32,000 nucleotides of DNA from Thermosulfurimonas dismutans. GTDB taxonomy: Bacteria; Desulfobacterota; Thermodesulfobacteria; Thermodesulfobacteriales; Thermodesulfobacteriaceae. The DNA lies in assembly GCF_001652585.1 (NCBI RefSeq), contig NZ_LWLG01000015.1, positions 30,001 through 62,000 of the forward strand, in the 5' to 3' direction. A model generated the notes under the pieces. That model worked only from the letters and a program-made list of their open reading frames with translations, did no database searches and was not told the DNA's origin. The translations under genes and the position numbers were made by a program. Positions 3,733 through 26,250 of this stretch are shown here, piece after piece; within the stretch, counting starts at the first letter, position 1; each line of letters starts with the position of its first letter.

Positions 3733-5610
3733 ATGCAAAGGGATAAAAAACCAAAACCCCTCTTCAACAACAATAAAAACCGCTATATTCCCTGGGTCTT
3801 CTTAGGGTTGATCCTGCTCTTCTTTTTTATGTGGCCTTTTCTTGTTTCCTATCCCAAGGAAGAGCTGGCTTACAGCGAATTCAAGACCTTGGTAAGACGG
3901 GGGTTGGTAGACAACTTGGTAATCTCTCGGGACGTGATCGAAGGTGAGTTTAAGAAAGGGGCCGCGGAGGTCCTTTCTCAGTTGAGACACGCTCCGGTCA
4001 AATCCCAGAAGTATTTTCAAACCGGTAAGGTAGATGATCCCGAACTGGTGAAGCTTCTTGAGGAAAAGGGTATTCGTTTTCGGGCCAAGGCCGAGCCTGG
4101 TTGGTTCTCGCATCTCCTTTCCTGGGTTCTACCCCTGGGGTTACTCTTCTTTTTCTGGTTTTTGATCCTGAAACGGTTTGGCCCTCCAGAAGGTGGGGTC
4201 ATGGGGCTAGCCAAGAGCAAGGCTCGGGTATATGTCCAGGAGGACATCAAGGTCACCTTCAAGGATGTGGCCGGTGTGGACGAGGCCGTAGAAGAACTAA
4301 AGGAAGTTATTGAATTCCTTAAAAATCCTCAACGTTTTACGTCCCTGGGGGGAAAGATCCCCAAAGGGGTACTTCTGGTGGGACCTCCTGGCACAGGTAA
4401 AACACTTTTAGCTAGAGCGGTAGCCGGAGAAGCCGGGGTGCCCTTTATTTCCATTTCCGGTTCCTCCTTTGTAGAGATGTTTGTGGGGGTGGGGGCGGCC
4501 CGGGTGCGGGATCTTTTTGCCACTGCGGAACAAAAGGCCCCCTGCATCATCTTTATTGATGAAATTGATGCCTTGGGTAAGGTGCGCGGAGTCTCTCCAG
4601 TGGCAGGAGTTGACGAGCGGGAACAAACCCTGACCCAGCTCCTCACCGAAATGGACGGCTTTGATCCCAAGAAGGGTATCATCATCATTGCGGCCACCAA
4701 CCGTCCGGAGATTCTGGATCCAGCGCTTCTACGGCCCGGGCGCTTTGATCGGCATATTGTGGTGGATCGTCCGGATCTTAAGGGCCGGGAGGCCATCCTC
4801 CGAGTGCACACCCAGAATGTAAAACTGGCTCCAGATGTGGACCTAAAGGTGATCGCGGCTCGTACGCCCGGTATGGTGGGGGCGGATCTGGCCAATATTG
4901 TGAACGAGGCCTGTCTACTTGCGGCTCGCAAAGGTAAAAAACAGGTAGAAATGGAGGACTTTGAGGAGGCGGTGGATCGGGTCATCGCCGGTTTGGAGAA
5001 GAAGAATCGCTATCTTTCCAAGGAAGAAAAACGCCGGGTGGCCTATCACGAAACCGGACATGCCCTGGTGGCGGCTTCAGTGCCAGGTGCGGACAAGGTG
5101 CATCGTATCTCTATCATTCCGCGCGGGGTTTCAGCGCTAGGATACACCCTTCAGCTTCCCACCGAGGATCGGTATCTTCTTACCCGAAGCGAACTATTTG
5201 ACAGGCTTACAGTTCTTCTAGGAGGTCGAGCTGCGGAAGAACTGGTTTTCGGGGAGATTTCCACCGGGGCCCAGAACGATCTCGAGAAGGCCACCGAGAT
5301 CGCCCGGGCTATGGTCATGGACTATGGGATGAGCGAGAAGCTTGGGCCCCAGACTTTTCGCCGCCGCGAACACCTTTTCCTGGACGTTCCCTTCCGGGAA
5401 CGGGAGACTATGTCCGAAGAAACCGCCCGGGCTATAGATGAAGAGGTTGGAAAACTCCTGCGGGAGGCCTCTACCCGGGCACAGGAGATTTTAGCCCAGA
5501 ATCGCCATCGTCTGGAGGAGATAGCCGGTCTCCTTCTAGAGAAAGAGGTCCTTGAGGGTGAAGAACTGGAAAGACTCCTTTACGGAGATTCTAAAGCTCA
5601 CGAATCTTGA
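3733..5610 (+). CDS. ftsH: ATP-dependent zinc metalloprotease FtsH
   Basis: 625 aa. N-terminal TM helices, Walker A GPPGTGKT, Walker B IIFIDEID, second region of homology [20 protein letters not shown], zinc site HETGHA. Confidence 0.96.
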
Positions 5611-6478
5611 AGACCCCTTCCTCCTGGGCCTTATTGAAACGTCTAAGATTCCTGAGGGTTAGAAGACTTATCACCGAAGCTGTGGATAAGAGGGTCGGAT
5701 AAAGAAGACTTATCCGATCCAGAAGGGAGAGCACTAGGCTTACGCCAGTCCCCAAAAAAAGAAAGGCTGTAAGGATCGTTAGCCTTTTTTCGTTTCGTTT
5801 GCGATTTTTCAGGACCAGTCGGATGGTGAGCAACTCCCGCAGGACCTCGAAAGTCCGTTTAAGTCCGTAATGGGTACGTCCGAACCGCCGGGGACGATCT
5901 ATAATTTTTACCTCAGCTACTTCGGAATTTTTGACCCCGAAGACCGCCGGTATGAAACGATGAAAACCGTGAGGAATTTGGATACGCTTGACTATTTCTG
6001 CCCGATAGGCTTTGAGACTACAACCGTTGTCGTGCACCCTGATACCGGTGATGAGACCGATGAGACGGTTGGCCACAAAGGAAGGAATTTTACGAGTGAT
6101 AAGAGGCTCCTTGCGTTTCATGCGCCATCCGGAGACCACGGCGTAGCCTTCACGCAACTTGCGGAGAAGGTCCGGGATATAGGCCGGATCGTTCTGGCCA
6201 TCGCCGTCCATGCTTACCACGATCTCCCCTCGGGCGTTAAAAAAACCGGCGGTCAAAGCTGCGGCTTCGCCACGGTTACGGTCCATTTCAAGGACCCGCA
6301 CTCGGGAATCCCTGGCTTTGAGTTTCCTTAAAACCTCCCCAGTGCCATCGGTGCTGCCGTCATTCACATAGATTATTTCAAAGGGTTCTCCTAAAGGTTC
6401 AAGAGCCGCCAGGATTTCTTCATAAAGGGGTTCGATGTTCTTTTCTTCATTGTGTACTGGGATGACCACCGAGATCAC
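5591..6478 (-). CDS. Family-2 glycosyltransferase, polyprenyl-phosphate sugar synthase type (ArnC/GtrB/DPM1-like)
   Basis: 295 aa with a GTG start. VVIPVHNEE, YVNDGSTDGT and DGDGQNDP motifs (GT-A DXD type), plus C-terminal hydrophobic helices as in ArnC/GtrB. Last gene of the minus-strand operon. Its 3' end overlaps the ftsH 3' end by 20 nt. Confidence 0.85.
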   Translation of the reverse strand: MISVVIPVHNEEKNIEPLYEEILAALEPLGEPFEIIYVNDGSTDGTGEVLRKLKARDSRVRVLEMDRNRGEAAALTAGFFNARGEIVVSMDGDGQNDPAYIPDLLRKLREGYAVVSGWRMKRKEPLITRKIPSFVANRLIGLITGIRVHDNGCSLKAYRAEIVKRIQIPHGFHRFIPAVFGVKNSEVAEVKIIDRPRRFGRTHYGLKRTFEVLRELLTIRLVLKNRKRNEKRLTILTAFLFLGTGVSLVLSLLDRISLLYPTLLSTASVISLLTLRNLRRFNKAQEEGVFKIREL

Positions 6479-6480
6479 TA

Positions 6481-7590
6481 CTAGGCTCCGAAAAAGGCTC
6501 TGACCGCAGAGACCACCTCTTCAAATTCGGATTCCGTAAGCTCTGGAAAGATGGGGAGCGCCAGACTCTCTTTCGCCACCCTTTCGCTTCTCGGAAGGGA
6601 TAGTTCCGGAAAGCCGGCCTCCCGCCATGCCTTCTGGCGATGTAAGGGTTCGGGATAGTAGATGCCGGTCCCGATACCTCTTTCTTTGAGGAAAGTCATG
6701 AGCTCGTCCCGTTGCGAGGTCCTCACCACGAAACGGTGATAAACGCTGATTCTTTCCGAACCGTCCTCGGGAGGCAGTCTGAGATCCCCCACTCCCGAGA
6801 GGGCCTCGCGGTATCGAGCCGCCCATTGTCGGCGTCTTTCGTTTTGTTCTGAAAGACGACGGAGCCTGGCCCTCAGGACTACCGCTTGGAGTTCATCCAG
6901 CCGGCTGTTAAAACCGTAGAAGTGATGCTCGTTCTTTTTGACCTGTCCATGTACCCGGAGGTAACGTAGTTTGAAGGCCACTTCCTCGTCATCTGTAATT
7001 ACCAGGCCAGCGTCCCCCAGAGCATTTAGATTTTTGACTGGCCCGCAGCTAAAACAGCCTACCTTTCCGAATGTTCCGATCTTCTGCCCCCGGTATTCCG
7101 CCCCGTGGGCATGGGAGGCATCTTCAATGAGGACCAGGCCGTGGCGCTCGCAGATTTCAAGGATGGGTTCAAGAGTTATCGGATGACCATACATGTGCAC
7201 CACGATCAGGGCCTTGGTTCGGGGAGTAATGGCCGCTTTTACGGCTTCAGGATCCGGCCCCAGAGAATCCTCTTCCATTTCTACTACCACTGGTCGAGCT
7301 CCGGCCCAGAGGATGGCCTCTATATCAGCCACAAAGCCGTTGGCCTGCACGATGACCTCGTCTCCCTGACCTATGCCACAGGCTATCAGGGCAAGCCACA
7401 GGGCTTCCGTTCCAGAGCCTACCCCAAAGGCATATTTAGTTCTGAAAAATCTAGCCGCTTCTTCTTCAAAGGCCAAAAGGTTCTCGCCGTTAAGGAGCCG
7501 CATAGTTTCGGTTACTTTGCGCCAACCAGCTTCTACCTCTTCTCTTATTTCGGGCCAATCCCTTTTGAGATCAAGAAGGGGCACCGCCAT
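6481..7590 (-). CDS. DegT/DnrJ/EryC1/StrS-family sugar-nucleotide aminotransferase (ArnB/GnnB/WbpE-like)
   Basis: 369 aa. GSGTEALWLAL, DASHAHGA and a candidate PLP-lysine in FSCGPVKNL. GGAGGG SD upstream. 2-nt gaps to both neighbours. Confidence 0.9.
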   Translation of the reverse strand: MAVPLLDLKRDWPEIREEVEAGWRKVTETMRLLNGENLLAFEEEAARFFRTKYAFGVGSGTEALWLALIACGIGQGDEVIVQANGFVADIEAILWAGARPVVVEMEEDSLGPDPEAVKAAITPRTKALIVVHMYGHPITLEPILEICERHGLVLIEDASHAHGAEYRGQKIGTFGKVGCFSCGPVKNLNALGDAGLVITDDEEVAFKLRYLRVHGQVKKNEHHFYGFNSRLDELQAVVLRARLRRLSEQNERRRQWAARYREALSGVGDLRLPPEDGSERISVYHRFVVRTSQRDELMTFLKERGIGTGIYYPEPLHRQKAWREAGFPELSLPRSERVAKESLALPIFPELTESEFEEVVSAVRAFFGA

Positions 7591-7592
7591 CT

Positions 7593-8666
7593 CTAACCCT
7601 CCATCTTTCCTAGCCGGGATTTTTCAGGGGTAAAAGGAAATTTTACCTCGGTTCCGCTTTCCGCGGACTCGTAAAGAGCTTGGATGAGCTCTAGCGAGGG
7701 GATAGCGTCTTTGCCTATGCAGAGCCTGGGATCGGGGGGCTCTCCGGCGAAGTAATGCATGGCTGCTCGCAAATACTCTCGGTGGGCGAAACCTAAAGGA
7801 TCCGGCGGATTTTTTCGGCAGGCCTCAAGCTCTTCTTCATTTAAATTTTGGTTTTCCAAAGCCAGATGGGCCAGTTCGTTCATGGCAAAGCCGCCGAGTT
7901 TTACGGAGCCTTTTTCGCCTAGGATTACCAGTTCGGCTCCGAGGTCTTTAGGCCGGGCGCAGGTGGTGGCCTCGATGGTTCCTAAGGCCCCGTTTTTGAA
8001 GCGGATCACGCCCACTAAAATATCTTCCGCCTCGATTTCAACCAATCGAGTATCCTTCTTGGCGAAGACGCTTTCGACCTCACCCATGAGCCAGCGGAGC
8101 ATGTCCACATGGTGGCAGCCCTGCTGGGCGAGCGCCCCGCCATCAAGGGCCCAAGTGCCACGCCAGGCGGCACTGTCGTAATAGTCCTGTCTGCGACACC
8201 AATAAAACCGAGCCGAAGCCAGGACAATCTTACCCAAGAGATTCTTCTCCAAGATCTCTTTGACCTTCTTCACCGGGAGATTGAACCGATTCTGAAATAC
8301 CGTAACCAATTTGAGACCAAGCTCTTCGGCCGTCTGTACCATCTCCCAGGCTTCTTCGATGTTGAGGGTTATGGGTTTTTCAAGGAGTATGTTTTTACGA
8401 AATTCGCGCATTACCGGAAGAGAAATCTTTCCGTGCATTCCGGAAGGCACCGCAATGTCCACTACTTCTATTTCGGGATATTCCGAGAGCATCTTTCGCC
8501 AGTCTGTGTACCAGGCGGCTCCAATCTCCTCCGCAAAGGCCCGGGCTTTCTCGGGATCGGAATCCGCTACGGCCACTAATGCTACTTCCGGTAATTCTTT
8601 GAAGATGCGTAGATGTCTGGTAGCCGCTTTCCCGCAACCTATAAGAGCAAGTTTTACGGATTTCAT
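7593..8666 (-). CDS. Gfo/Idh/MocA-family NAD(P)-dependent (sugar-nucleotide) oxidoreductase
   Basis: 357 aa. N-terminal Rossmann KLALIGCGKAATRHL and family EKP motif (LLEKPITL). Strong SD (GGAGAGAGAGGGGA) upstream. Confidence 0.85.
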   Translation of the reverse strand: MKSVKLALIGCGKAATRHLRIFKELPEVALVAVADSDPEKARAFAEEIGAAWYTDWRKMLSEYPEIEVVDIAVPSGMHGKISLPVMREFRKNILLEKPITLNIEEAWEMVQTAEELGLKLVTVFQNRFNLPVKKVKEILEKNLLGKIVLASARFYWCRRQDYYDSAAWRGTWALDGGALAQQGCHHVDMLRWLMGEVESVFAKKDTRLVEIEAEDILVGVIRFKNGALGTIEATTCARPKDLGAELVILGEKGSVKLGGFAMNELAHLALENQNLNEEELEACRKNPPDPLGFAHREYLRAAMHYFAGEPPDPRLCIGKDAIPSLELIQALYESAESGTEVKFPFTPEKSRLGKMEG

Positions 8667-8679
8667 TCCCCTCTCTCTC

Positions 8680-10299
8680 CTAAGGATAAGGAATAAAAGG
8701 TTGTTTTAAGATGTATTTTCCCGAAAGTTTCCAAAGGAGGTAATTTTTATTAGAATCTTTGGAACGATATAATTTATCCACGGCATAAAGTTCTCCATTG
8801 GCGCCTAAGATTTTTATTTCAGATGCCGCCTTTTTATAAAACTTTTCCCGAAAAAATACAAGATCACAATTTTGAACGGCTTTGGATAGTTCCTGATAAA
8901 TCGGTAGTGGCCTCGGTGAGGCTATATAAAAGAAGAGGTTAGCCGAAATTTTACGATAACCACAAAGCTTGGCTTGCGGAAAGCTGGTTTGTAACTGAGC
9001 CAATCCCCTTCCGAAGATTTTTTCAGAAGGTGGGGTTAAAGCGGGAGTAGCTATGGAGATCCCAGCTATAGCTAAAATAAGATAACTAAAGATAAGCCCC
9101 CAGGGGGAAGTTCGTTTTTTGACACACCACCTTAAAGCTCCTAGTATGAAAATACCGGTTATTAAGGGTAAAAAACGACTTTTGAAGGGTAAAAAATCAA
9201 AATGATGGGGAAAAATAGCCAGTAAAACAAGAGAAATGCCGACAAAAAGGGTTGTAAATCCGTAAAAATAAGAGAGGCCCCTGGCCAGGGCATCCGGATT
9301 TTTTAGCTTATCTCTTAAATAGTAAGTTATAAGGAGCACTCCCAGGGGTACGGCCGGAAGGATGTAATAGGAGCGTCGGGCTCGAGCTAGATCGAAAAGC
9401 AGGAAAACGGCTGTAAGAGCTAGAAGCAGAAAACGCTGATTCTGGGAAACCTTGCGAAAGTTTTTAACCGTAAACCCTAGGGCCGCAAAGAAAAACAAGG
9501 TCCAAGGCAAGAATAATTCGGGAAGATAATAAAAATATACATAAAAAGGTTCACGGTTGTCGTAGGGATTGACCACCTGCGTAAGGTTTTCCCGTACAAT
9601 CAAATAGAAAGGTAGCTCACTTCCCATGGCCCGGGCGATACCTAGATAATGGAGAAAATAGAGGGTCAAGGCCAGAAAGGCCGCCCCAAAATTCTGTAAG
9701 TTAAGATGTCTGAAATTGCGGTTTAGCACTATATCTACCATGGCCACTAATACTGGCACAGTAAAACCCGGAAGTCCTTTCGAGAGGGCTGCCAAGAGGG
9801 CCGAAAACCAGAACCCCAGGTATCCCCAGAAGCTTTTCTTTTCTCGAAACCACATATAAAAGGCCAGCGCCGAGACGATGCCGGCCAGTTGGTAGATCTC
9901 GCTCTGGGCCACCCGGGCATAACCCACAAAGCCCCAGGTGGTGGCAAGGATCCCCGCAGCCGTTAAGGACCACCAAGGTTCGAAGAATCTACGGGCCAGG
10001 GCGTAAAAGGCTACGATGGTGAGAAGACCGCAGGTGGCCACCGGAAGTCTTACGGTCAACTCGTCGAGTCTCCCGAAGGCAAGGGCCGAGATCCTTATTA
10101 GCCAGTAGGGGATGAGGGGTTTGGTGACATGGGGTTCGCCGTTTATGGTGGGCACCCACCAGTCCCCACGAAGCATCATTTCCCGTACACCTTCCGCCCA
10201 GCGTCCCTCCACTCCCCATAGAGGCCGGTCGCCTAGGTTCAGGAAGAGAAAGGTCAAAAGTCCAAGCCCGAAAAGTACCATTAACTTCCGTTCTCTCAT
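8680..10299 (-). CDS. ArnT-like GT-C glycosyltransferase (GT83/GT39 type), full length with C-terminal periplasmic domain
   Basis: 539 aa and polytopic. The first periplasmic loop EGRWAEGVREMMLRGDWWVPTINGEPHVTKPLIPYW matches the ArnT/PMT catalytic-loop pattern (acidic-x-R-x-A-E ... KPP). A ~130-aa soluble C-terminal domain follows. ATGA overlap with the upstream paralog. Confidence 0.8.
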   Translation of the reverse strand: MRERKLMVLFGLGLLTFLFLNLGDRPLWGVEGRWAEGVREMMLRGDWWVPTINGEPHVTKPLIPYWLIRISALAFGRLDELTVRLPVATCGLLTIVAFYALARRFFEPWWSLTAAGILATTWGFVGYARVAQSEIYQLAGIVSALAFYMWFREKKSFWGYLGFWFSALLAALSKGLPGFTVPVLVAMVDIVLNRNFRHLNLQNFGAAFLALTLYFLHYLGIARAMGSELPFYLIVRENLTQVVNPYDNREPFYVYFYYLPELFLPWTLFFFAALGFTVKNFRKVSQNQRFLLLALTAVFLLFDLARARRSYYILPAVPLGVLLITYYLRDKLKNPDALARGLSYFYGFTTLFVGISLVLLAIFPHHFDFLPFKSRFLPLITGIFILGALRWCVKKRTSPWGLIFSYLILAIAGISIATPALTPPSEKIFGRGLAQLQTSFPQAKLCGYRKISANLFFYIASPRPLPIYQELSKAVQNCDLVFFREKFYKKAASEIKILGANGELYAVDKLYRSKDSNKNYLLWKLSGKYILKQPFIPYP

Positions 10300-11393
10300 G
10301 GCGAGTGAAATATAACATGAGCTTTCAAATATATGGAGCTACCAGCTTTGATGGCCAACAGGAGTCCTACCCAGAACAGCATAAATGCCTTTTTGGGTAA
10401 ACGGTTTCCGGTTTGGAGTTCAAGACCGGCGGCCAGAAGGCTCAAGGGGCCGAAGAGGGGCAAGATATAGAGCGGAAGGCGGGATTTAGCCAGCCAGAAG
10501 ACTGTAAATGGTACTAGAAACCACAAGGCCACGATGCGGACTTTTTCCGAGGTTTTTAGGAAAGATCCGAGGGACCGTCCATTCTTTAGCAGGGAAAGGA
10601 AGATCGGTACAGCACCTACGGTAAGGAGAGGTAGGTAGAGGTAAAACGGGGCGTACCAGGCACTATTCCGGTGGAAGTAGTTGTGAAAGAGCCTTCCCGT
10701 AACTTGTTCCTTCAGAAAGACCTCCCAGAAGTAAGGAAAATGGAATTGAACATATAGATACCAGGGAAGAGCTATTATTAAAAAGACCAGGGCTCCTAAA
10801 AAGAGTCCCTGCCAGTCTCTTCTTTTTACCCAGCCATACCACAGGAAAGGGAGCATTACCGGAAGTACCGCTGTTCCTTTGGTCATGAAAGCTAGAGCCC
10901 AAAAGACCCAGGCAAGATGGGGAACCCTAAAGAAGGCCCAAGCCCCTAAGGTCTCCCACATAACCAGAAGGGTATCGGGGGTGACGATATTGGCGGCTAC
11001 AAAGGGCGTAAGAGTGGTGGCATAGAGGCTCCCGGTTCGCAAGCCCACTCCTTCTCCAAAGAGCCTCTTTCCAATGGCTGCCAAGGCCGCGGCCGTTATG
11101 GCAAAGGCCAAGGCGTTAGGAACTCGCGCTCCCCAGCGGTTATCTCCAAAAACCCTGTAGCTCAGGGCTATAGTCCAATAAAATAGAGGAGGTTTAGTAA
11201 GATGGGGATGTCCCTTCCAGTATGGGATTAGAAAAGACTTGCTAGAGAGCATATTTCGAGCAATTTCAGTATAGCGATGTTCGTCTCGCCCCATATAAGG
11301 CCGAGTCCCCTGAAACCAAAGGCCCAAGACCAAGGCTAGAATAAAAATCTTAAAGACTGAATTTCTCAAGATTTTTAGCCTCCTAGCAACCAA
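10296..11393 (-). CDS. ArnT-like GT-C glycosyltransferase, short membrane-only form
   Basis: 365 aa. RDEHRYTEIARNMLSSKSFLIPYWKGHPHLTKPPLFYW matches the ArnT/PMT loop. The rest is TM helices with no C-terminal soluble domain. The start is uncertain: TTG at 11393, and the first ATG would delete the first TM helix. Confidence 0.72.
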   Translation of the reverse strand: MVARRLKILRNSVFKIFILALVLGLWFQGTRPYMGRDEHRYTEIARNMLSSKSFLIPYWKGHPHLTKPPLFYWTIALSYRVFGDNRWGARVPNALAFAITAAALAAIGKRLFGEGVGLRTGSLYATTLTPFVAANIVTPDTLLVMWETLGAWAFFRVPHLAWVFWALAFMTKGTAVLPVMLPFLWYGWVKRRDWQGLFLGALVFLIIALPWYLYVQFHFPYFWEVFLKEQVTGRLFHNYFHRNSAWYAPFYLYLPLLTVGAVPIFLSLLKNGRSLGSFLKTSEKVRIVALWFLVPFTVFWLAKSRLPLYILPLFGPLSLLAAGLELQTGNRLPKKAFMLFWVGLLLAIKAGSSIYLKAHVIFHSP

Positions 11394-11432
11394 ATTTCAC
11401 CTTGATTTTGTGGAATTCTTTTTGAGGCGGGG

Positions 11433-11449
11433 TTAAAACTGGATTAAAA
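11433..11449 (+). promoter_or_regulatory. Direct repeat TTAAAA-N5-TTAAAA (11-bp phasing) in the divergent regulatory region
   Basis: TTAAAA 11433-11438, CTGGA, TTAAAA 11444-11449. Lies in the 110-nt region between the GT-C operon and the response-regulator gene. Confidence 0.3.
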
Positions 11450-11463
11450 TTTCTCAATGGAGC

Positions 11464-11480
11464 TTTAATTAAACTTTAAG
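11464..11480 (+). promoter_or_regulatory. Direct repeat TTTAAT-N5-TTTAAG, candidate OmpR-family response-regulator box
   Basis: TTTAAT 11464-11469, TAAAC, TTTAAG 11475-11480. The 11-bp phasing is typical of tandem winged-helix half-sites. The hexamers fit the YTTAAK pattern I recall for the PmrA box. Confidence 0.35.
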
Positions 11481-11503
11481 GAAAACGTGCTTAAAAAAAC
11501 GTT

Positions 11504-13595: not shown

Positions 13596-13599
13596 GAAT

Positions 13600-13644
13600 T
13601 TTTAATCTGTTTTCAATCTTTCTCTAATTGTACCGTTTTAATCT
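13600..13644 (+). promoter_or_regulatory. Repeated TTTTAATCT motif set, including TTTAAT-N5-TTCAAT with 11-bp phasing
   Basis: TTTTAATCT at 13600-13608 and again exactly at 13636-13644. Variant TTTTCAATCT at 13610-13619. Half-sites TTTAAT 13601-13606 and TTCAAT 13612-13617 are separated by 5 nt. Confidence 0.35.
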
Positions 13645-13655
13645 TTCCCTATAGA
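13628..13655 (+). promoter_or_regulatory. Candidate promoter of the efflux operon
   Basis: TTGTAC (13628-13633), 16 nt, TATAGA (13650-13655). This is followed by SD AAGGAGG (13665-13671) and ATG at 13677. The match to consensus is weak. Confidence 0.3.
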
Positions 13656-13676
13656 CCTCTACCAAAGGAGGTTGTC

Positions 13677-14153: not shown

Positions 14154-14158
14154 ACTTT

Positions 14159-14196: not shown

Positions 14197-14222
14197 TACC
14201 AACCCCGCTCTGACAGCCAATT

Positions 14223-19700: not shown

Positions 19701-19768
19701 TGCCGCTGGTCCTCGTGGTTTTGCCGGCCTTATTGGCGCTTATTAAAAGAGAATATCAAACAGGTTAA
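16727..19768 (+). CDS. RND efflux transporter permease (AcrB/CusA/CzcA superfamily), copy 1
   Basis: 1013 aa with a GTG start. 12-TM/2-large-loop architecture. TM4 motif GLIIDDMIVMEEH and TM10 region GIVTETAIFYLSEY. N-terminus VEWMQSHRRSILFLIAIL is typical of the family. Confidence 0.93.
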   Translation: MNVVEWMQSHRRSILFLIAILALGGLAASFRLPVALFPHVDFPRVEVKLEAGDRPAERMAIEVTRPVEEAIRSVPGVRSIRSTTSRGSADISINFDWGEDMVAAMLQVESAINQVLPRLPRGTSFTVRRMDPTVFPVLAYSLTSDTHSLVELRDLALYQLRPLLSTVKGVAKVGVQGGAEEEYEVMIDPAKLDALGLSIDDVARALSAANVIKAVGRLEDHYKLYLVISDTRFQSLKEIKETIIRAGKNGLVRLDDIATVRRGTAPQWIRVTADGHDAVLLLIYQQPRGNTVEIAKEVKKKLAEFRKHLPLGIKIAKWYDQSELILSAAGSVRDAVLIGLLFAALVLWLFLRNLKMTFIAAVLVPSVLAATIILLYVLHMSFNIMTLGGLAAAVGLIIDDMIVMEEHIVRRLGELANQQLGIATAVRELSRPLAGSSASTTIIFAPLAFLSGVTGAFFKALSLTMAASLLISFFVAWLGVPILANHLLTQKDAEKERPGRWASRFYERYESFMKSIMARSWLIIPVLLILVGIGWIAYHRLGSGFMPKMDEGGFVLDYRAPSGTSLTETDRLLRQVEMILQETPDVETYSRRTGLSLGGHITEANEGDFFVRLKPPPRRDIEAVMEDIRGRIERRVPGLEIEMAQLMEDLIGDLTAVPQPIEIKLFSDNGTLLRKLAPKVAEEIRKIPGVVDVRDGIVLAGDALVIHVDRDRAALEGVDPEWVTRMLSYYLGGAVTTQIQKTPKMVGVRVWIPSHLRDTASKVEALRLRAPDGHLFPLRRIARVEVLTGQPQIMHEDLKRMVAVTGRISGRDMGSVIRDVKRVLNRPGLIPKGVYYELGGLYRQQQIAFAGLLAVFVSAVLLVFLLLLFLYESFRMAIAVMATILLSLAGVFVGLWITHTEINISSMMGLTMIVGIVTETAIFYLSEYRLLPRHVPYKTALILAGRNRLRAVAMTTVAAILALMPLALGIGQGAAMLKPLAIAIISGLCLQLPLVLVVLPALLALIKREYQTG

Positions 19769-19773
19769 GAAAA

Positions 19774-20820
19774 ATGAGGACTATCTTTTCGGTCGCTTGC
19801 GTATTTTTTCTGATTATATCTTTGATCCAATTCGTAGAAGCGGCCAAGGTCGAACCGTCTCTCATCAAAGTTTCTACCCCGGTGAGAAGAGACTTTCGTC
19901 GGACTGTCCCTTTTGTGGGGAAGGTGTTTTCCAAAAAGAGCGTAAGGATAACGGCGCTCACGCCGGGTCGGATCGTCTCGATAGGCGTTCCCGATGAGAG
20001 CCGGGTGAGGGCCGGAGAAGTCCTCTTCGTCCTGGGCGGCCCGGAGGTGAAAAGGAGGCTTGCCACCCTAAGGTCACAAGTGGCCGTTCTTGAAAAGGAA
20101 ATCTCTTTGGCCGAGGAGGCTGTGAGGTTAAAGAGGGAAGGAGTTAAGGCCAAGATCATCCCTTACGGAGAGCTCCTTAACGCCGAAAAGCATCTTCTGC
20201 AACTCAAAAATGAACTTGTGGCCCGGAAAAACGAACTATACCTTTTTGAAACCCGGCTGCGGATCAGGGCCTCGATTTCGGGAATCTTTACCCGGCGAAG
20301 GGTCTCTATCGGTCAGAGGGTGGAAAAGGGAGCGGTTCTGGCTGAAGTCTTGGACCCGAAGGCTCTCTGGGTTAAGGCCATCGTCTTCCCCCCGGAAGGC
20401 GTCAGCCTCTCCGGCAAACCGGCCCTGATCCAGCTTCCGGGCCGCACCCTTTCCGCCAGGGTGGCGAGGGTGGCCCCCGAACGGACCCCGGCGGGAGGGA
20501 TAACGGTCTTTCTCGAAGGGAGGGATATTTCAAGGTCCCTGGCCCCGGGTGAGCCCGTGAGGGGAGTGGTGATCCTCGAGGAACATCGAAAGGCCCTGGC
20601 CGTCCCCGAAGAGGCCCTCGTCTATGACGAAGCCGAAAGGGCTTACGTCTTCGTCAAAAGCGAAAAGGGGTTTGAGAAGCGGATGGTCAAGACCGGGCTT
20701 TCCGGGGATGGTTTCGTAGAGGTCGTCTCTGGTCTCAGAGAAGGGGAAAAGGTGGTGATTAAGGGGGCCTACGAACTCTTTTATCGAGATTTTAGTCGGA
20801 TTTACAGAGTTCCCGATTAG
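19774..20820 (+). CDS. RND efflux periplasmic adaptor (MFP/HlyD family), copy 2
   Basis: 348 aa. Signal/anchor MRTIFSVACVFFLIISLIQFVEA. Lipoyl halves (RVRAGEVLFVLG ... RVEKGAVLAEV) around a coiled-coil. C-terminal VSGLREGEKVVIKGAYEL. Confidence 0.85.
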   Translation: MRTIFSVACVFFLIISLIQFVEAAKVEPSLIKVSTPVRRDFRRTVPFVGKVFSKKSVRITALTPGRIVSIGVPDESRVRAGEVLFVLGGPEVKRRLATLRSQVAVLEKEISLAEEAVRLKREGVKAKIIPYGELLNAEKHLLQLKNELVARKNELYLFETRLRIRASISGIFTRRRVSIGQRVEKGAVLAEVLDPKALWVKAIVFPPEGVSLSGKPALIQLPGRTLSARVARVAPERTPAGGITVFLEGRDISRSLAPGEPVRGVVILEEHRKALAVPEEALVYDEAERAYVFVKSEKGFEKRMVKTGLSGDGFVEVVSGLREGEKVVIKGAYELFYRDFSRIYRVPD

Positions 20821-20824
20821 GAAG

Positions 20825-21829
20825 GTGCGTGAGGTGCCTCTTACAGAAGCTAGGAGAATATCCCTGCGATTCTTTGTTCTTCTGGGTGCGTTGGGAGCCA
20901 TTCTCGGGCTTGAGTTCTATGAACATGTTTGCGCCCTTCCAGCTACAGATTGGAATACTCGCAATCTTTCTAGAATAAGGATTAAGGATCCGCATGATTT
21001 TTCATTCGCCGTATTTGGAGATAGCCAGTTCAGCATCTATGCCTTTGAAAGCCTCTTAAGGGACATTGACCAAGATCCTGAAATCTCCTTTGTCATTGCC
21101 TTGGGAGATATGGTCCATTCAGGAAGCAAGACATCGTATTCCCTTTTTTTGGATCTTATCCAAAAGAACCTTCACAAACCCCTAGTTACGGTCATCGGCA
21201 ATCACGAACTAAAAGGAGGCGGTTATCCGCTTTATACTCGGATCTTCGGCCGGCCTTATTACTCCTTTCGTATCGGAAGGACCTGTTTCTTGATCCTGGA
21301 TGATGCCGCAAGAAAGCTTAACCTCAAAGAAAGATCCTGGCTTGAAGGAGAACTCAGGAAGAGCCGGGACCTTTGCGACCACCGTTTGGTTTTTCTCCAC
21401 ATTCCCCTTTATGATCCCCGGCCTCACGAATACCACTGTCTACCCGAAAAAGAGGCCAAATTTCTTTCGAGGGTTTTTAGGGGCTACGGGGTCTCTCACG
21501 TATTTGCCGGACACATCCATGGTTATTTTCATGGAAACTGGAATGGCATTCCTTACACCATCACCGGCGGGGCAGGAGCTAGACTTTACGGCGGGGATCC
21601 GAGACATTTCTTCTACCATTATCTCAAAGTAAAGGTCATAAACGGTGTTCTTGACGTGGAAGTGAAACCCATTTTCGTTCCGGGCCCCAAATGGTTCGAT
21701 CATACCCTTTACTTTGTCTACACCTATCTCTTTGACCCTCATTGGTTAGAAGCGGCCCTGTGGATGATCGTTTTGGGGCTAATCTTTCCCCTGATCTGGA
21801 AAAAATTTCGAAAAGGACCCGGCAAATGA
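20825..21829 (+). CDS. Membrane-anchored calcineurin-like metallophosphoesterase (one TM helix at each end)
   Basis: 334 aa. Motifs FGDSQ, GDMVHSG, GNHE, FLHIPLY and GHIHGY. N-terminal helix FFVLLGALGAILGL and C-terminal helix AALWMIVLGLIFPLIW followed by KKFRKGPGK. The start is ambiguous (GTG 20825 or GTG 20834). ATGA overlap with the downstream RND gene. Confidence 0.85.
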   Translation: MREVPLTEARRISLRFFVLLGALGAILGLEFYEHVCALPATDWNTRNLSRIRIKDPHDFSFAVFGDSQFSIYAFESLLRDIDQDPEISFVIALGDMVHSGSKTSYSLFLDLIQKNLHKPLVTVIGNHELKGGGYPLYTRIFGRPYYSFRIGRTCFLILDDAARKLNLKERSWLEGELRKSRDLCDHRLVFLHIPLYDPRPHEYHCLPEKEAKFLSRVFRGYGVSHVFAGHIHGYFHGNWNGIPYTITGGAGARLYGGDPRHFFYHYLKVKVINGVLDVEVKPIFVPGPKWFDHTLYFVYTYLFDPHWLEAALWMIVLGLIFPLIWKKFRKGPGK

Positions 21830-24800
21830 GGGGATTTCTGCGCTGGCTTATTGACAGACCGCCCCTCATGCTTCTTTTGGTTGCATCCATCGTTTTTGCC
21901 GGGGTGTACGCCCTTTGGCACCTGCCGGTAGATCTTTTCCCCAATCTTGATCTTCCGGTGGTAAACATTGTTACTCATTATCCCGGGGCTGCTCCCGAGG
22001 ATATGGAACTTCTCGTTACCCGCCCTATTGAAGACGAAATGCGAGGCCTACCAGGGGTCAAACGGGTGGCCTCGGTCTCGGTTCAGGGCATCTCCAAGGT
22101 CACGGTGGAGTTTGGCCCTGGTATTTCGGTCAGAGAGGCCCGAGAACTCGTTCAGGCGAGGCTCGCCCGGACCGCTGGTCTCTTGCCGCGCGGGGCCGTC
22201 CCCAGGCTCGAAAACATCGGTACCACCCTTCAGGAGGTGCTCGGATATGTGGTCTACGGCTCGAAGGACCTCGTGGAACTGCGAAATCTCATCCGGTTTA
22301 CCCTCACCAATCGGCTCATGGGTATTCCCGGGGTCTCCTCGGTGGAGGTCTTTGGGGGTGATAGGCGGGCCTTTATTATCCGGGTAAGGCCAGAGGCCCT
22401 TGCCCGTCTCGGACTCGGCATTTCGGATCTCGAGCTAGCTCTAAGACGCCACAATGCCTCTGAGGTAGCCGGTTTCCTTACTAGAGGTGGACGGGAGTAT
22501 GTGATCCGTGGAGATGCCCGTCTGCAAACTATTGAAGACTTGAAAAACCTCTATCTAAAGAGCGCCGATGGGGAGGCGGTTCCTCTTTCGGCGGTGGCCG
22601 AAGTCTTTGAAGGAGTGGCTCCCAAGCATTACGAGGTCAGGGGAGACGGTCAACCGGCAGTGGCCTTTTACGTGCGTAAGCAACCCGGTGCTAGTTCTAT
22701 TGAGGTCGCCCGGGCCGTGGAAAACGCGGTGGAGGAATTCAAGGCCCTCCTTCCTCCGGGAACAAAGATCAAAAAATTCTACGATCAGTCAGAGATCATA
22801 AAAGAGGCCCGGGAAACCATTTCCAGTGATCTTTTGCTCGGGGCGGCCCTGGCAGTGACCGTCCTCTATCTTTTCATAGGGACGATGAGGCCTACCCTCA
22901 TAGTGGCCGCCACCATCCCACTCACCCTGCTGGTCACCCTAGTCCTAATGAAGATCCTGGGGCTTTCGCTCAATGTCATCACTTTTTCGGCGCTCACGCT
23001 TGCCGTGGGGATGATCGTGGACGACGCCATTGTGGTCACGGAGAACGTCTCCCGGCACCTGGAGATGGGGAAAGCATCCCCAGAGGCGGCCTTGGCAGGC
23101 ACGGTAGAAATCACCCCGCCCGACGCCGCCGGGACCTTCACCACTGTGGCGGCCTTTCTCCCCCTGGCCCTGGTGACCGGTATCGCCGGCCTTTTCCTGC
23201 GGCCCTTCGGTTTGGTGGTGAGTCTGGCCCTCCTAGTCTCCCTCATCCTTTCCCTCTCGTTGGTCCCGGTGCTTCTCGGGAATATGCCCCCGGTGCGGGA
23301 ACCCCTCCGGCCCCCGGCCGGGAGGCTTCTCACGGGTCTGAGGGGTCTCCTATCTCGGGTCCTCTCCTATAGCCTTGATCATCCCCGTAAAGTGATCGTT
23401 CTGAGTATGGGGGGCCTTACCTTGGCCGGTCTTTCGGTCTTTCTTGGCTCGGCAAAGCTCCTCCCTCCGGTGGACGAGGGGGCCATCCTGGTAGAATACA
23501 TCATGCCCCCAGGCACCTCTCTCAGGGAGAGCAATCGAATTGGAGAAGAGCTTGTCCGCCTAGCCATGACCGATCCCGATGTGGCCTGTGTGTATCGTCG
23601 CACCGGCTCCCCAGAGGTGGGTTACCAGATCGAGGGTGTCAACCGGGGAGAAATTATGATCAAGCTCAAGCCCAAGGGGGAACGTTACCGGGGAGTAGAG
23701 GAGATCATGGCCGATCTCAAGAGGGCTTATGCTCGCTTTCCCGGGGTGGTCTTTCTTTATCACCAGCCCACCCAGGAGAAGATGGACGAGAGTCTTTCCG
23801 GGCTTCCGGCCCTCTTCGGGGTGACTGTCTACGGTGAAGACCTTGACACCCTGGCGTACCTGGCCGGAAAGGTAGAAGAGATCATGGACGAGGATCCGGC
23901 CATTACCAATGTGGTCAATCCCCTGAAGACAAGAAGGCCTCAAATCGTAGTAAGGCTGAGGTATCCCGACCTTGCCCGTTTCGGGGTGAGCCTGGAGGAG
24001 GTGTTTTCCACCCTGAGGGCCACCTTTGGGGGCCTTGAGGCCACACGCATCGTGAGACAGCGGGAGGAGATCGATGTCCTTCTCGAATTTGATTGGCCCG
24101 AGGCTTTCGGCCTAAAAAGACTTGCCCTTCTACCTATCCGGACAGCGAAAGGGGAACTGGTACCCCTCAGGAAGGTGGCTGATATCCGGGTGGAATACCT
24201 CCCCGGAGAGATCACCAGGCTCAACGGTGAACGGGAGGTCACCCTGCTGGCCGAAGTGGAGGGGAACCTATTCAAGGTGGCCTCAAGCCTCAAGAGGCGT
24301 CTTGCGGCCCTTTCGCTTCCCCGGGGCTACCGGGTGGAGGTGACCGGACAGTACAAGGTTCTCAAAAGGAGCCTGTGGGAGATGATGTTTATCCTTTCCG
24401 GGGCTATCATTTTTGTCTATCTTATATTGTTTGCGGAGTTTAAGTCCTGGAAACGCCCTTTGGTGATATTGACTACGGCCCCTTTTTCCTTGGTAGGGGC
24501 TATCCTGGCCCTCTGGATAACCCGTCAGGGCCTGAACATCTCGGTGGCCATGGGCGTGCTCACCCTTATAGGAATCTGTGTCAACAATGCCATCGTCCTT
24601 CTCGACTTTGCCGAACAAAAAATAAGGGAAGGGATGGACAGAAAGGAGGCCCTGATTGAAGCGGCTCAGACCAGGCTCAGGCCAATCCTCCTTACCAGCC
24701 TGACAACTATCTTTGCCCTTATTCCTACGGCCCTGGGCCTCGGAGCGGGAGCTGAGTACTTTCGAGGATTTGCTATAGCTGTTATAGGAGGCCTCGTGAC

Positions 24801-24861
24801 GGCTACTCTGGTTTCGTTTATTCTGGTGCCCTGCATAGAAGTTTTTGGGAGTACAAGTTAG
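21826..24861 (+). CDS. RND efflux transporter permease (AcrB superfamily), copy 2
   Basis: 1011 aa from ATG 21826 (MRGFLRWLIDRPPLMLLL, a typical RND N-terminus). TM4 GMIVDDAIVVTEN and TM10 GICVNNAIVLLDFAEQ. The longer ORF from 21742 overlaps the phosphoesterase and is not needed. Confidence 0.93.
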   Translation: MRGFLRWLIDRPPLMLLLVASIVFAGVYALWHLPVDLFPNLDLPVVNIVTHYPGAAPEDMELLVTRPIEDEMRGLPGVKRVASVSVQGISKVTVEFGPGISVREARELVQARLARTAGLLPRGAVPRLENIGTTLQEVLGYVVYGSKDLVELRNLIRFTLTNRLMGIPGVSSVEVFGGDRRAFIIRVRPEALARLGLGISDLELALRRHNASEVAGFLTRGGREYVIRGDARLQTIEDLKNLYLKSADGEAVPLSAVAEVFEGVAPKHYEVRGDGQPAVAFYVRKQPGASSIEVARAVENAVEEFKALLPPGTKIKKFYDQSEIIKEARETISSDLLLGAALAVTVLYLFIGTMRPTLIVAATIPLTLLVTLVLMKILGLSLNVITFSALTLAVGMIVDDAIVVTENVSRHLEMGKASPEAALAGTVEITPPDAAGTFTTVAAFLPLALVTGIAGLFLRPFGLVVSLALLVSLILSLSLVPVLLGNMPPVREPLRPPAGRLLTGLRGLLSRVLSYSLDHPRKVIVLSMGGLTLAGLSVFLGSAKLLPPVDEGAILVEYIMPPGTSLRESNRIGEELVRLAMTDPDVACVYRRTGSPEVGYQIEGVNRGEIMIKLKPKGERYRGVEEIMADLKRAYARFPGVVFLYHQPTQEKMDESLSGLPALFGVTVYGEDLDTLAYLAGKVEEIMDEDPAITNVVNPLKTRRPQIVVRLRYPDLARFGVSLEEVFSTLRATFGGLEATRIVRQREEIDVLLEFDWPEAFGLKRLALLPIRTAKGELVPLRKVADIRVEYLPGEITRLNGEREVTLLAEVEGNLFKVASSLKRRLAALSLPRGYRVEVTGQYKVLKRSLWEMMFILSGAIIFVYLILFAEFKSWKRPLVILTTAPFSLVGAILALWITRQGLNISVAMGVLTLIGICVNNAIVLLDFAEQKIREGMDRKEALIEAAQTRLRPILLTSLTTIFALIPTALGLGAGAEYFRGFAIAVIGGLVTATLVSFILVPCIEVFGSTS

Positions 24862-24864
24862 CTT

Positions 24865-26250
24865 ATGGTAACCCAAATGAAGGCGGCTTTTAGAGCTTTT
24901 TGGGCTCCCTGTTTAATGGTTCTAGTGCTGTATGTGGTTCCCCTTTCTTTTCCTTTGACTTCCATCCAGGAAGCCCGTCGGGCAGAGATCGTTCAAGAGG
25001 CCGTAATACTCGGAAACTGGCTTATTCCTAGCCTCAATGGTGAGCCTTATGTGGTGAAACCCCCGTTTCATATTTGGATAACAGGCGTCTTCGCTTGGCT
25101 TTTTGGTGTTAAGGAAGCTGTGCTAAGGATATCCTCTTTTCTTTCGGCGCTTGGCATAGGAATTGTTCTCTATCGCCTGACCCTAAAGGTTTGTAGCCGC
25201 ATGGAAATAGCCCTTCTTTCCGTGCTAATCCTGATTTCTGCTCCCAAGTTCTTTTTCTTCTCTCACCGGGTGGAAATCGATATGTTGCTGGCCTTTCTTT
25301 ATTTTTTAAGCTTCTATTTCTTCTGGAGCTACCTCTCCGAGGAGAAAAGCCGATTCCTTTACCTGGGATATTTTGTGGCTGGACTGGCGGCCCTAACCAA
25401 GGGCCCTTTCATTTTTTTTCTCTTTCCGCCGCTGGCGATTTACGGCCTCCTCTACAAAGATCGCCGGATCTGGCGGGTACTTTTCAATCCCCTGGGTTGG
25501 TTTCTTCTTCTGGCTCCGGTCTGCGGCTGGTATTTTTACGCCTACAAAAAGCTTTCGGCCGCGGCTTTTTACGAATTCATCTATACCGACATCTTTGGAA
25601 GGATTTCCACCGGCAAAAGGGATCCCTTTTGGCATTACCCAGGGGCTCTTCTTCTGGCCTTCATGCCTTGGACCTTGGCTTTGCTTTACCGTCCGGGGAA
25701 GTTTTTGCGGGAGGCGTTGCGTGGCCAGCAGTCCCTTATCTTCCTATCTTTTTTGGTGCCGATTACCCTTCTCAGCTTTACGGCCGCCAAATACAGCAAG
25801 TATCTCCTTCCTTTTTACCCCTTCTTTGCCTTGTTCCTTGCCCGCCTGATATTCAGCCAGCTTGAAAACCGAGCCTTTCCAATACGAAAATTTATGGTCG
25901 GGACTTCTTTTATAGTTCTAATGATGGTGGCCGGTACTCTGGTTATGGAATACCATTCAAACCGGCTCCGCTTCGACTCTCTATCGGCGGCGAGGCCCTA
26001 TCTATCCCTGCCTTATCCCTATTACAGTTACCGAAAGGAACCCAACTATCTTCTGGTCTTTTATCACGGGGGCCCTATTCCGGTGGTAAGAGAAGAAGAT
26101 CTCAAGGGTCTCAAGCCCCCCTTTGTGCTCTTAGTGGAAACCATCCCCGGGGCCGAGGTCTCTTTGCCTAGGTCAGACCTTGGAAAACTCGCCGAGATTT
26201 CTCCATTCTACAGAAAAAAACGTCGCCTTTTGATCTTTGTTTTTTCCTGA
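24865..26250 (+). CDS. ArnT-like GT-C glycosyltransferase (third paralog)
   Basis: 461 aa and polytopic. Loop SIQEARRAEIVQEAVILGNWLIPSLNGEPYVVKPPFHIW matches the ArnT/PMT catalytic-loop pattern. Starts 3 nt after the RND2 stop. Confidence 0.8.
   Translation: MVTQMKAAFRAFWAPCLMVLVLYVVPLSFPLTSIQEARRAEIVQEAVILGNWLIPSLNGEPYVVKPPFHIWITGVFAWLFGVKEAVLRISSFLSALGIGIVLYRLTLKVCSRMEIALLSVLILISAPKFFFFSHRVEIDMLLAFLYFLSFYFFWSYLSEEKSRFLYLGYFVAGLAALTKGPFIFFLFPPLAIYGLLYKDRRIWRVLFNPLGWFLLLAPVCGWYFYAYKKLSAAAFYEFIYTDIFGRISTGKRDPFWHYPGALLLAFMPWTLALLYRPGKFLREALRGQQSLIFLSFLVPITLLSFTAAKYSKYLLPFYPFFALFLARLIFSQLENRAFPIRKFMVGTSFIVLMMVAGTLVMEYHSNRLRFDSLSAARPYLSLPYPYYSYRKEPNYLLVFYHGGPIPVVREEDLKGLKPPFVLLVETIPGAEVSLPRSDLGKLAEISPFYRKKRRLLIFVFS

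Follow-up and report, generated by a model that had tools for sequence, protein, structure and literature searches.

A putative composite envelope-defence locus in Thermosulfurimonas dismutans: a sensor-pump cassette set between ArnT-like glycosylation genes

Could one two-component system govern both envelope glycosylation and efflux from a single locus in Thermosulfurimonas dismutans, and do the genes concerned belong together as one fixed system? This question is raised by positions 5591-26250 of a 32,000-nt stretch (positions 30,001-62,000 of the forward strand of NZ_LWLG01000015.1), hereafter the window, in whose numbering all open reading frame (ORF) coordinates are given. Here, genes for a response regulator (RR) and a sensor histidine kinase (HK) lie between ArnT-like GT-C glycosyltransferase genes and genes for two resistance-nodulation-division (RND) permeases, and an initial annotation had proposed that the whole forms an integrated regulon for envelope remodelling and efflux. 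The reading preferred in this study, with a rough probability of 55%, is a composite envelope-defence locus in which a sensor-pump cassette is set between the genes of an envelope-glycosylation locus.

Gene families were assigned by Pfam and NCBIfam scans and membrane segments by hydropathy. The region consists of two divergent, tightly packed units with 15 genes, five on the minus and ten on the plus strand, and not 16 as counted in the initial annotation. The minus unit runs from 11393 to 5591 with junctions of -4, 13, 2, and 2 nt and encodes, in this order, a GT-C glycosyltransferase of 365 aa (GTC365), a second one of 539 aa (GTC539), a GFO/IDH/MocA dehydrogenase of 357 aa, a DegT aminotransferase of 369 aa, and a GT2 glycosyltransferase of 295 aa. 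The plus unit runs from 11504 to 26250 with junctions of -11, 81, 69, 0, -4, 5, 4, -4, and 3 nt and encodes the RR, the HK, a 158-aa protein (hyp158), an outer-membrane factor (OMF), a first membrane fusion protein and permease (MFP1, RND1), a second membrane fusion protein (MFP2), a metallophosphoesterase (MPE), the second permease (RND2), and a GT-C glycosyltransferase of 461 aa (GTC461). The junctions reported earlier for both units were all reproduced from the ORF coordinates, with the RND2 start set at ATG 21826 to match T. marina. The scans also confirmed the RR (11504-12190) and HK (12180-13595) at the divergence point and the OMF-first double-RND operon with two MFP and RND pairs. To this layout, which stood as described, they added the MPE between MFP2 and RND2 (20825-21829), a gene that had been left unnamed. 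The NCBIfam equivalog cut-offs for Arn, Pmr, Cus, and Mdt/Bae were reached by no protein of the locus.

Within the genus, the synteny check suggested with the initial annotation came out in favour of a conserved frame, which was present in four Thermosulfurimonas-type genomes. Its core is a GT-C operon opposite RR-HK-OMF-MFP-RND-GT-C; optional additions are the second pump, hyp158, and the MPE. The arrangement is no chance juxtaposition, since T. marina, Thermosulfurimonas sp. F29, and a metagenome-assembled genome (MAG) labelled T. dismutans have the frame as well. T. marina has the full frame. In F29, the minus unit stands opposite RR-HK-OMF-MFP-MPE-RND-GT-C without hyp158, MFP1, and RND1, and a 127-aa aspartyl-protease-like ORF is inserted between the DegT and GT2 genes. 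The MAG has two GT-C genes divergent from RR-HK-OMF-MFP-RND-GT-C and lacks the MPE. The HK and OMF genes overlap by 4 nt in both F29 and the MAG, which places sensor and pump in one operon there. A terminator was searched for between the HK and the pump genes and none was found, and with genes overlapping in two genomes, co-transcription of sensor, pump, MPE, and GT-C appears well supported.

The nearest named HK homologues were found in T. marina (64% identity), a Thermodesulfatator MAG (63%), and F29 (62%), and Logan contigs from two sequencing runs encoded an HK with 99% identity. In the Thermodesulfatator MAG, the HK gene is followed by unrelated genes, with no pump 3' of it. Dissulfurirhabdus thermomarina, with an HK of 37% identity, carries RR-HK divergent from an operon of PMT_2-GT2-DegT-EamA-PMT_2. 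A rhomboid gene follows the HK gene there, with no pump immediately 3', and the contig ends within the rhomboid gene. This gene order supports an extension of the sensor-glycosylation link past the genus.

The cassette is also missing altogether from some loci. In three related MAG or metagenome loci (L090/91, L092, and L093), an orthologue of GTC461 (42-47% identity) stands immediately next to a divergent gene of the GTC365 or GTC539 kind, and neither sensor nor pump genes separate the two; this arrangement is seen at positions 1-300 of L090, 1-312 of L092, and 1642-1784 of L093. The right-hand neighbours of L090/91 are those of F29. A metagenome scan with the GTC365 alignment returned a single 2.4-kb locus. 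The same pair of GT-C genes is thus met with the cassette between them or without it. The terminal GT-C gene therefore belongs to the glycosylation locus, and it is through the position of the cassette that it is co-transcribed with the pump. The initial annotation had described an ArnT-like GT-C fused into the efflux operon; the packing at 3 nt is as described, and the gene is better read as a glycosylation-locus gene that the cassette has displaced.

The plus-strand pump block (~11 kb, 13490-24861) has a history of its own. Nucleotide identity to T. marina (L001, 11300-21410) was 90-98% from ~13490 to at least 23665; the T. marina sequence compared covers RND2 up to residue 613, which brackets the right edge of the block between 23665 and ~24865. 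By blastn against T. marina, identity was 97.4% over 9456 nt (14210-23665) and 65-77% to the left. Sliding identity placed the left step at ~13490, inside the final ~100 nt of the HK gene. At the protein level, OMF, MFP1, RND1, MFP2, MPE, and RND2 were 95-99% identical to their T. marina counterparts and hyp158 was 83% identical; the minus unit together with RR and HK reached 58-76% (RR and HK 64-76%), and the GTC461 orthologue 46%. A 97%-identical block of 11 kb within diverged syntenic flanks of 46-76% identity indicates recent exchange of the pump block between lineages, and would be a clear example of an efflux module recently passed between vent species by homologous exchange. The GC content, overall and at third codon positions (GC3), was uninformative as to the direction of transfer. 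An assembly chimera was considered as the cause of the block and judged unlikely, since the identity of 97% falls short of 100% and the two flanks belong to one and the same syntenic frame.

The locus is therefore a modular, laterally reshuffled composite and no fixed 15-gene system. The regulon proposed initially remains plausible and has gained some indirect support, and the frame is conserved, but its parts are variably missing, and the cassette-less loci, the Thermodesulfatator HK without a pump, and the separate lateral history of the pump block all speak against an integrated unit.

Regulation would have to act through the 110-bp intergenic region shared by the divergent units (11394-11503), to which a promoter scan and a repeat pattern search were applied. 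The scan placed a rightward sigma70-like promoter, TTGAGG-N17-TAAAAT, at 11422-11450. The two TTAAR-N6-TTAAR repeats at 11433-11448 (plus) and 11464-11479 (minus) were the sole matches to this pattern in 32 kb (local-shuffle P of 0.004-0.009 each), and in T. marina and F29 the pattern was likewise confined to the RR-proximal intergenic region. Across six aligned intergenic regions TTAAAAT was invariant, and it is the -10 of the conserved promoter. The cassette-less loci have this promoter element as well, and in them it drives the GT-C gene; L092 and L093 carry that of the window (GCTTAAAATATTTTAG) in the form TTG...-N16/17-TAAAAT.

The PmrA box is CTTAAG-N5-xTTAAT (PMC3973317), and the tandem xTTAAx repeats of the window with their 5-bp spacers resemble it. 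They cover the promoter spacer and the -10, not the -35, and a PmrA-box-like operator was accordingly downgraded: since the invariant core of the repeats is the -10 of a promoter conserved in cassette-less loci too, an operator is inseparable from the promoter. The initial annotation had named 13596-13676 as a second candidate RR-binding region; no exact TTAAR repeat was found in it, and its one copy with a single mismatch (13602-13617, minus) is not kept in T. marina. Upstream of the RR start codon (11484-11503), there is no recognisable Shine-Dalgarno sequence (AAAAAAACGTTATG); that of hyp158 is perfect (AAAGGAGGTTGTCATG). Over the 60 nt 5' of hyp158, identity to T. marina is ~95%, so that a possible internal promoter would travel with the exchanged block.

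The RR is of the OmpR/PhoB family (Pfam Response_reg and Trans_reg_C). Its top NCBIfam models scored 194-211 bits and all stayed under their cut-offs, namely PhoB (211 against 296), the heavy-metal RR (210), CusR (203 against 420), and PmrA (193.5 against 330). The HK (Pfam HAMP, HisKA, and HATPase_c) has two transmembrane (TM) segments flanking a periplasmic loop of ~116 aa, close to the ~120 aa given before, and this sensor loop was its most diverged portion in sliding identity against T. marina. Its scores were 194 bits for the heavy-metal HK model TIGR01386 (cut-off 293), 107 for the Cu/Ag HK (423), and 138 for BaeS (500). The pair, called CusR/PmrA-like in the initial annotation, stayed under the CusR, CusS, and PmrA equivalog cut-offs.

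The minus unit appears to be Arn-like in its logic, which leads from a nucleotide amino sugar over a polyprenyl-phosphate carrier to periplasmic GT-C transfer. GTC365 (10296-11393, minus) consists of the ArnT-like membrane domain alone (Pfam PMT_2, 2e-16), and GTC539 (8680-10299, minus; Pfam PMT_2/PMT) has at least seven TM segments by hydropathy and a C-terminal soluble domain. GTC461 (24865-26250, plus; Pfam PMT_2) starts 3 nt past RND2. All three passed the Pfam cut-off of PMT_2 and missed the ArnT equivalog with 84-112 bits against 567, GTC539 scoring 84. The PDB search covered GTC365 and GTC461, and ArnT (5ezm) was the sole match of each (1.5e-15 for GTC365). Residues D37-E38, K67, D140, R242, and Y309 of GTC365 align with conserved ArnT positions (the acidic pair of the first loop, a lysine, a second aspartate, an arginine, and a tyrosine) that are taken as catalytic; in GTC461, Q-E replaces the D-E acidic pair. 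The multi-TM GT-C fold and the conserved ArnT positions of an ArnT-type enzyme are both found here.

The GT2 protein (5591-6478, minus; Pfam Glycos_transf_2, 9e-35) had ArnC (PRK10714) as its top NCBIfam match, with 137 bits against a cut-off of 529. Its domain and C-terminal TM segment or segments, seen by hydropathy, fit the class of ArnC/GtrB-like undecaprenyl-phosphate glycosyltransferases, the likeness to ArnC holding at the family level only. The DegT protein (6481-7590, minus; Pfam DegT, 9e-109), a pyridoxal phosphate-dependent sugar aminotransferase, matched 7b0d, DesV (2oga), QdtB (3frk), and WbpE in the PDB, all above ArnB (209 bits), and scored 225 bits against the ArnB NCBIfam model with its cut-off of 631. 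C3 aminotransferases outscored ArnB, a C4'' aminotransferase, and the protein appears closest to them. The GFO/IDH/MocA protein (7593-8666, minus; assigned by Pfam), a putative WlbA/WbpB/GnnA-like nucleotide-sugar 3-dehydrogenase, had its top PDB matches in 3q2i and 3q2k at 2e-63, which we take to be WlbA, UDP-GlcNAcA 3-dehydrogenases; it scored 127 bits against a cut-off of 450 for the NCBIfam UDP-GlcNAc 3-dehydrogenase. The sugar chemistry would accordingly take place at C3, as with WlbA, DesV, QdtB, and WbpE and unlike that of 4-amino-4-deoxy-L-arabinose (Ara4N), the simplest candidate product being GlcNAc3N.

The initial annotation had spoken of an Arn-like glycolipid operon. Its GT-C and GT2 logic is borne out, but the likeness ends with the logic, as the unit is without ArnA, ArnD, and ArnE/F and has a GFO/IDH/MocA dehydrogenase. 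Within 5591-26250, the Pfam scan returned no Formyl_trans or Epimerase protein that could be ArnA, and no Polysacc_deac or EamA/SMR-type gene was found for ArnD or ArnE/F, for which the junctions of 2-13 nt leave no space. The same family scans did recognise genuine ArnA and ArnD in another locus (L022). WbpB/WbpE (WlbA/WlbC) and GnnA/GnnB include the best solved relatives of the dehydrogenase and aminotransferase; the window differs in lacking the partners WbpA, WbpD, and WbpI as well as lpx genes, and in coupling the pair to a GT2 and GT-C enzymes.

These two enzymes might also be GnnA and GnnB, which oxidise and transaminate UDP-GlcNAc at C3 and feed LpxA, and so supply UDP-GlcNAc3N for a lipid A with a 2,3-diamino-glucose backbone, with GT2 and GT-C enzymes moving another sugar and the minus unit structural instead of inducible. 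The enzyme families and the C3 chemistry match GnnA/GnnB, a similarity at the family level, and Aquifex and similar deep-branching thermophiles have GlcN3N lipid A. The pair is translationally packed with GT2 and GT-C genes at junctions of 2-13 nt, the unit has no lpx gene, and the Dissulfurirhabdus version has a DegT gene without the dehydrogenase, which makes this explanation improbable.

The pump genes begin with hyp158 (13677-14153, plus), a signal-peptide protein without a Pfam or NCBIfam match. It is a near-orphan, with just six distant relatives reaching E<=1e-3 in a search of 1.84 billion cluster representatives, and it is dispensable, being missing from F29 and the T. dismutans MAG. 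In conspecific metagenome contigs (L086/L087), a 462-nt deletion (window 13742-14203) removes it, and these contigs stop just within the OMF gene. The OMF (14223-15626, plus; Pfam OEP) has a lipoprotein-type signal. Each permease has its own adaptor and the single OMF is common to both. MFP1 (15627-16730, plus; Pfam HlyD_3/HlyD_D23) scored 125 bits against TIGR01730, above the cut-off of 94.9, and was not found in F29 or the T. dismutans MAG. MFP2 (19774-20820, plus; Pfam and TIGR01730), the adaptor of the core pump, is kept in all four cassette-bearing genomes. RND1 (16727-19768, plus; Pfam ACR_tran, 1e-221) had multidrug pumps and MdtB as its top PDB matches, and a 71% identical copy of it is held by a stand-alone OMF-MFP-RND operon in locus L006. 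RND2 (21826-24861, plus; Pfam ACR_tran, 9e-243), the core pump, matched MdtB (9lyq) first and then ZneA, with CusA lower.

Both permeases carry a DD pair in TM4 (IIDDMIV in RND1, IVDDAIVVTEN in RND2), which we take to mark pumps of the hydrophobe/amphiphile efflux (HAE) type and not of the heavy-metal efflux (HME) type. Against TIGR00914 (CusA/CzcA) they scored 446-548 bits with a cut-off of 701, short of the HME family. Scores of 345-444 bits against the MdtB and MdtC models (cut-offs 1584-1774), together with two MFP genes, set the operon apart from MdtABC-BaeSR. As in CusRS-cusCFBA, there is an adjacent or divergent OmpR-type pair, an OMF-first tripartite RND operon, and a small periplasmic protein. 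Here, however, the permeases have the proton relay of the HAE type, hyp158 is unrelated to known families, and the Cus models stay under their cut-offs. Of the likeness to Cus that had been noted initially, the OMF-first order holds and the rest does not: with the DD motif, no HME signature, and no CusF, the analogy is one of gene order only.

The locus could instead serve resistance to heavy metals (Cu/Ag/Zn) in the manner of CusRS-cusCFBA or CzcRS, and hyp158 would then be a CusF-like periplasmic chaperone. The OMF-first order would fit, as would heavy-metal RR (210 bits) and HK (194 bits) models among the top NCBIfam matches, ZneA and CusA among the PDB matches of RND2, and the metal-rich hydrothermal vent habitat. 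This is nonetheless quite unlikely, as every heavy-metal model stayed under its cut-off, both permeases have the TM4 pair of the HAE type, the closest PDB relatives are MdtB and multidrug pumps, and the supposed chaperone is a near-orphan without a family match that is deleted in a conspecific strain.

The MPE (20825-21829, plus) is a membrane-anchored calcineurin-like metallophosphoesterase of 334 aa (Pfam Metallophos, 1e-16) with N- and C-terminal TM helices. Its AlphaFold2 model (mean confidence score, pLDDT, 90) has a long N-terminal helix and C-terminal helices around the phosphatase core, and this core resembled purple acid phosphatase, GpdQ, and Rv0805 in Foldseek. As clues to a substrate, Foldseek and PDB sequence searches returned generic matches of these three kinds only. 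The predicted topology is N-in, TM, periplasmic catalytic domain, TM, C-in. Within the genus, the MPE is present in T. marina and F29 and absent from the T. dismutans MAG.

The family is widespread: a scan of species-representative genomes with an MPE alignment gave 220 loci, a best match of 50% identity, and no Thermosulfurimonas genome. Among 68 loci, those with an RR or HK within 5 kb of the MPE numbered 15; for an RND the count was 8 and for a GT-C it was 5. In L022 (67-11897), the order is LptFG-ArnB-ArnC-ArnA-ArnD-GT-C-GT-C-MPE-lipid A acyltransferase, so that the MPE ends a complete arnBCADT-like operon between LptF/G and the acyltransferase. L015 has an HK directly 5' of an arn-like operon that likewise ends in an MPE, and in L016, L026, and L055 the MPE lies inside RR-HK operons. 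Pumps adjoin it in L004 (OMF-MFP-MPE-RND), L077 (3662-14237; OMF-MFP-RND-MPE-PAP2-HK-sigma54 RR), and L006 (1382-16573; RR-HK-PAP2-OMF-MFP-RND with a divergent MPE), and L008 (382-9098) reads RR-HK-methyltransferase-sulfatase family-PAP2-MPE-sulfatase family. The sulfatase-family neighbours are EptA/LtaS-like, and L022, L008, L077, and L006 belong to other phyla.

Short of proof, these neighbourhoods point to a role in envelope-lipid phosphate chemistry. A further and doubtful step would make the MPE the founder of an uncharacterised family of lipid A/LPS (lipopolysaccharide) or undecaprenyl-pyrophosphate phosphoesterases that partner ArnT-like GT-C enzymes and dephosphorylate before the cationic 3-amino sugar is added. 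Its occurrence in RND operons (window, L004, L077) would then reflect functional coupling of remodelling and pump beyond co-regulation. As the locus lacks an ArnE/F flippase, the pump might, for instance, act on the lipid-linked intermediate or on the head group once it is released.

A metallophosphoesterase beside glycosyltransferases also recalls phosphate starvation, where PlcP adjoins the glycosyltransferase Agt under PhoBR control and the resulting glycolipids protect against polymyxin (PMC8528852). In a remodelling of this type, the MPE would strip phospholipid head groups and the glycosyltransferases would build glycolipids under a PhoBR-like system, and PhoB is indeed the top NCBIfam match of the RR (211 bits). 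The RR nonetheless stays under the PhoB cut-off of 296, the best-scoring model of the HK, whose periplasmic loop is large, is that of a heavy-metal sensor (again under its cut-off), and no Pho box turned up. The glycosyltransferases of the PlcP-Agt system are cytoplasmic, whereas the GT-C enzymes here depend on polyprenyl phosphate and have periplasmic active sites, and the catalytic domain of the MPE is predicted to be periplasmic. This origin of the locus is very improbable.

The composite envelope-defence reading can be stated as two layers. The older one would be a glycosylation locus dependent on a lipid carrier: the 3-dehydrogenase and C3 aminotransferase would make a 3-amino sugar nucleotide, most simply UDP-GlcNAc3N, the ArnC-like GT2 would load the sugar onto undecaprenyl phosphate, and the GT-C enzymes of 365, 539, and 461 aa would transfer it in the periplasm to the envelope, where lipid A or the LPS core is the likeliest acceptor. 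The cassette of RR, HK, OMF, MFP, and HAE-type RND has its place between the divergent GT-C genes, just 3' of the rightward promoter, and in some genomes it also holds an MPE, predicted to face the periplasm, and a second MFP-RND pair. Sensor, pump or pumps, MPE, and the last GT-C would be expressed from one promoter and the other glycosylation genes the opposite way from the same 110-bp region. Given this layout, the operon of the RR is probably under autoregulation, and the RR may act on the divergent unit as well. In answer to a putative common signal, export of a membrane-active toxic compound would be coupled with a glycosylation of the outer leaflet that alters its charge, and possibly with its dephosphorylation, in parallel to ParRS and PmrAB of proteobacteria.

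Several observations weigh against this reading. The minus unit of both T. marina and F29 extends into further genes, Wzy_C and GT4, and looks like general LPS/O-antigen synthesis. No ArnE/F-like flippase is encoded in the window, and PMT_2 enzymes may also glycosylate proteins. The TTAAR repeats overlap the promoter spacer and -10 and may be the promoter itself, and the element also occurs where no sensor adjoins. The periplasmic orientation of the MPE is based on hydropathy and charge (positive-inside rule) only, and about 50 of the 68 MPE loci have none of the neighbours named above and lie in housekeeping surroundings.

Some of this would agree with a sensor pair that controls its own operon only (pump, MPE, and terminal GT-C), as in AdeRS-adeABC, CusRS-cusCFBA, or BaeSR-mdtABCD, the divergent unit being a constitutive LPS/O-antigen operon that happened to be the site of insertion. 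Such an arrangement is possible, if rather unlikely. It would account for the loci L090/91, L092, and L093, in which these GT-C genes have no cassette between them, for a promoter element kept with or without an adjacent sensor, for the extension of the minus unit, and for the independent movement of the pump block. It would not account for Dissulfurirhabdus, where RR and HK face away from a GT-C/DegT/GT2 operon and the gene directly 3' of the HK, in which the contig ends, encodes no pump, nor for the HK upstream of the arn-like operon in L015. Moreover, terminal GT-C and MPE are co-transcribed with the sensor regardless, so that some glycosylation or phosphoesterase activity would still come under its control.

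For the composite envelope-defence locus, clear precedents exist in the regulatory logic of ParRS, pmrCAB, and mdtABCD-baeSR. In Pseudomonas aeruginosa, ParRS, one OmpR-type two-component system, activates both the RND pump mexXY and arnBCADTEF (PMC3848899). Shared with the window are a two-component system, an RND pump, and ArnT-like glycosylation. The targets of ParRS are scattered, whereas sensor, pump, and glycosylation genes are contiguous here with a GT-C gene in the pump operon; the sugar path here is a C3 amination without ArnA, ArnD, and ArnE/F, and co-regulation is a proposal. The initial annotation had regarded the combined architecture as undescribed; this is upheld for the physical merger, but shared control of arn and RND genes was already known from ParRS (PMC3848899). 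Since the locus merges two defences that share one regulator elsewhere, it is a variant of a known theme.

PmrAB of enterobacteria, with pmrCAB and arnBCADTEF, offers a second comparison, with an OmpR-family RR and HK beside a lipid A-modifying type of enzyme and the same logic of an ArnC-like GT2 and an ArnT-like GT-C; in pmrCAB, a lipid A-modifying enzyme stands in one operon with its own sensor. The window differs by the missing Ara4N pathway, an RR and HK under the PmrA cut-off, repeats that lie on the promoter spacer and -10, and embedded RND pumps. In Escherichia coli, mdtABCD-baeSR holds two RND permeases and a sensor pair in one operon, as does the window, whose RND2 has MdtB as its closest relative of solved structure. 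MdtB and MdtC form a heteromer with one adaptor, whereas the window has an MFP for each permease, one OMF, the regulators first, and an MPE and a GT-C included.

Literature searches for metallophosphoesterase with ArnT and RND, and for Thermosulfurimonas with efflux, found no description of such a locus. As far as these searches show, the physical merger, the version with a C3-amino-sugar pathway, and the MPE family are undescribed. If the proposed wiring is true, deep-branching vent thermophiles would share the logic of clinical proteobacteria, which pump out the agent and lower the envelope charge under one sensor. That logic would be hard-wired in one locus from other parts: Ara4N would give way to a C3-amino sugar, and PAP2 enzymes would be replaced or joined by a new phosphoesterase family. 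The natural variants, which have or lack the sensor-pump cassette and the MPE and differ in the number of pumps (one or two), make the roles of the parts testable by comparison, and T. marina, T. dismutans, and F29 are cultured.

Two minor observations concern gene borders. The 69-nt spacer between hyp158 and OMF (14154-14222) holds a 7-bp inverted repeat, GGCCTCG...CGAGGCC, without a T-run; in T. marina, this spacer is absent and the two genes overlap by 4 nt. At the left end of the locus, ftsH (3733-5610, plus) and the GT2 gene (5591-6478, minus) converge with an overlap of 20 nt (5591-5610).

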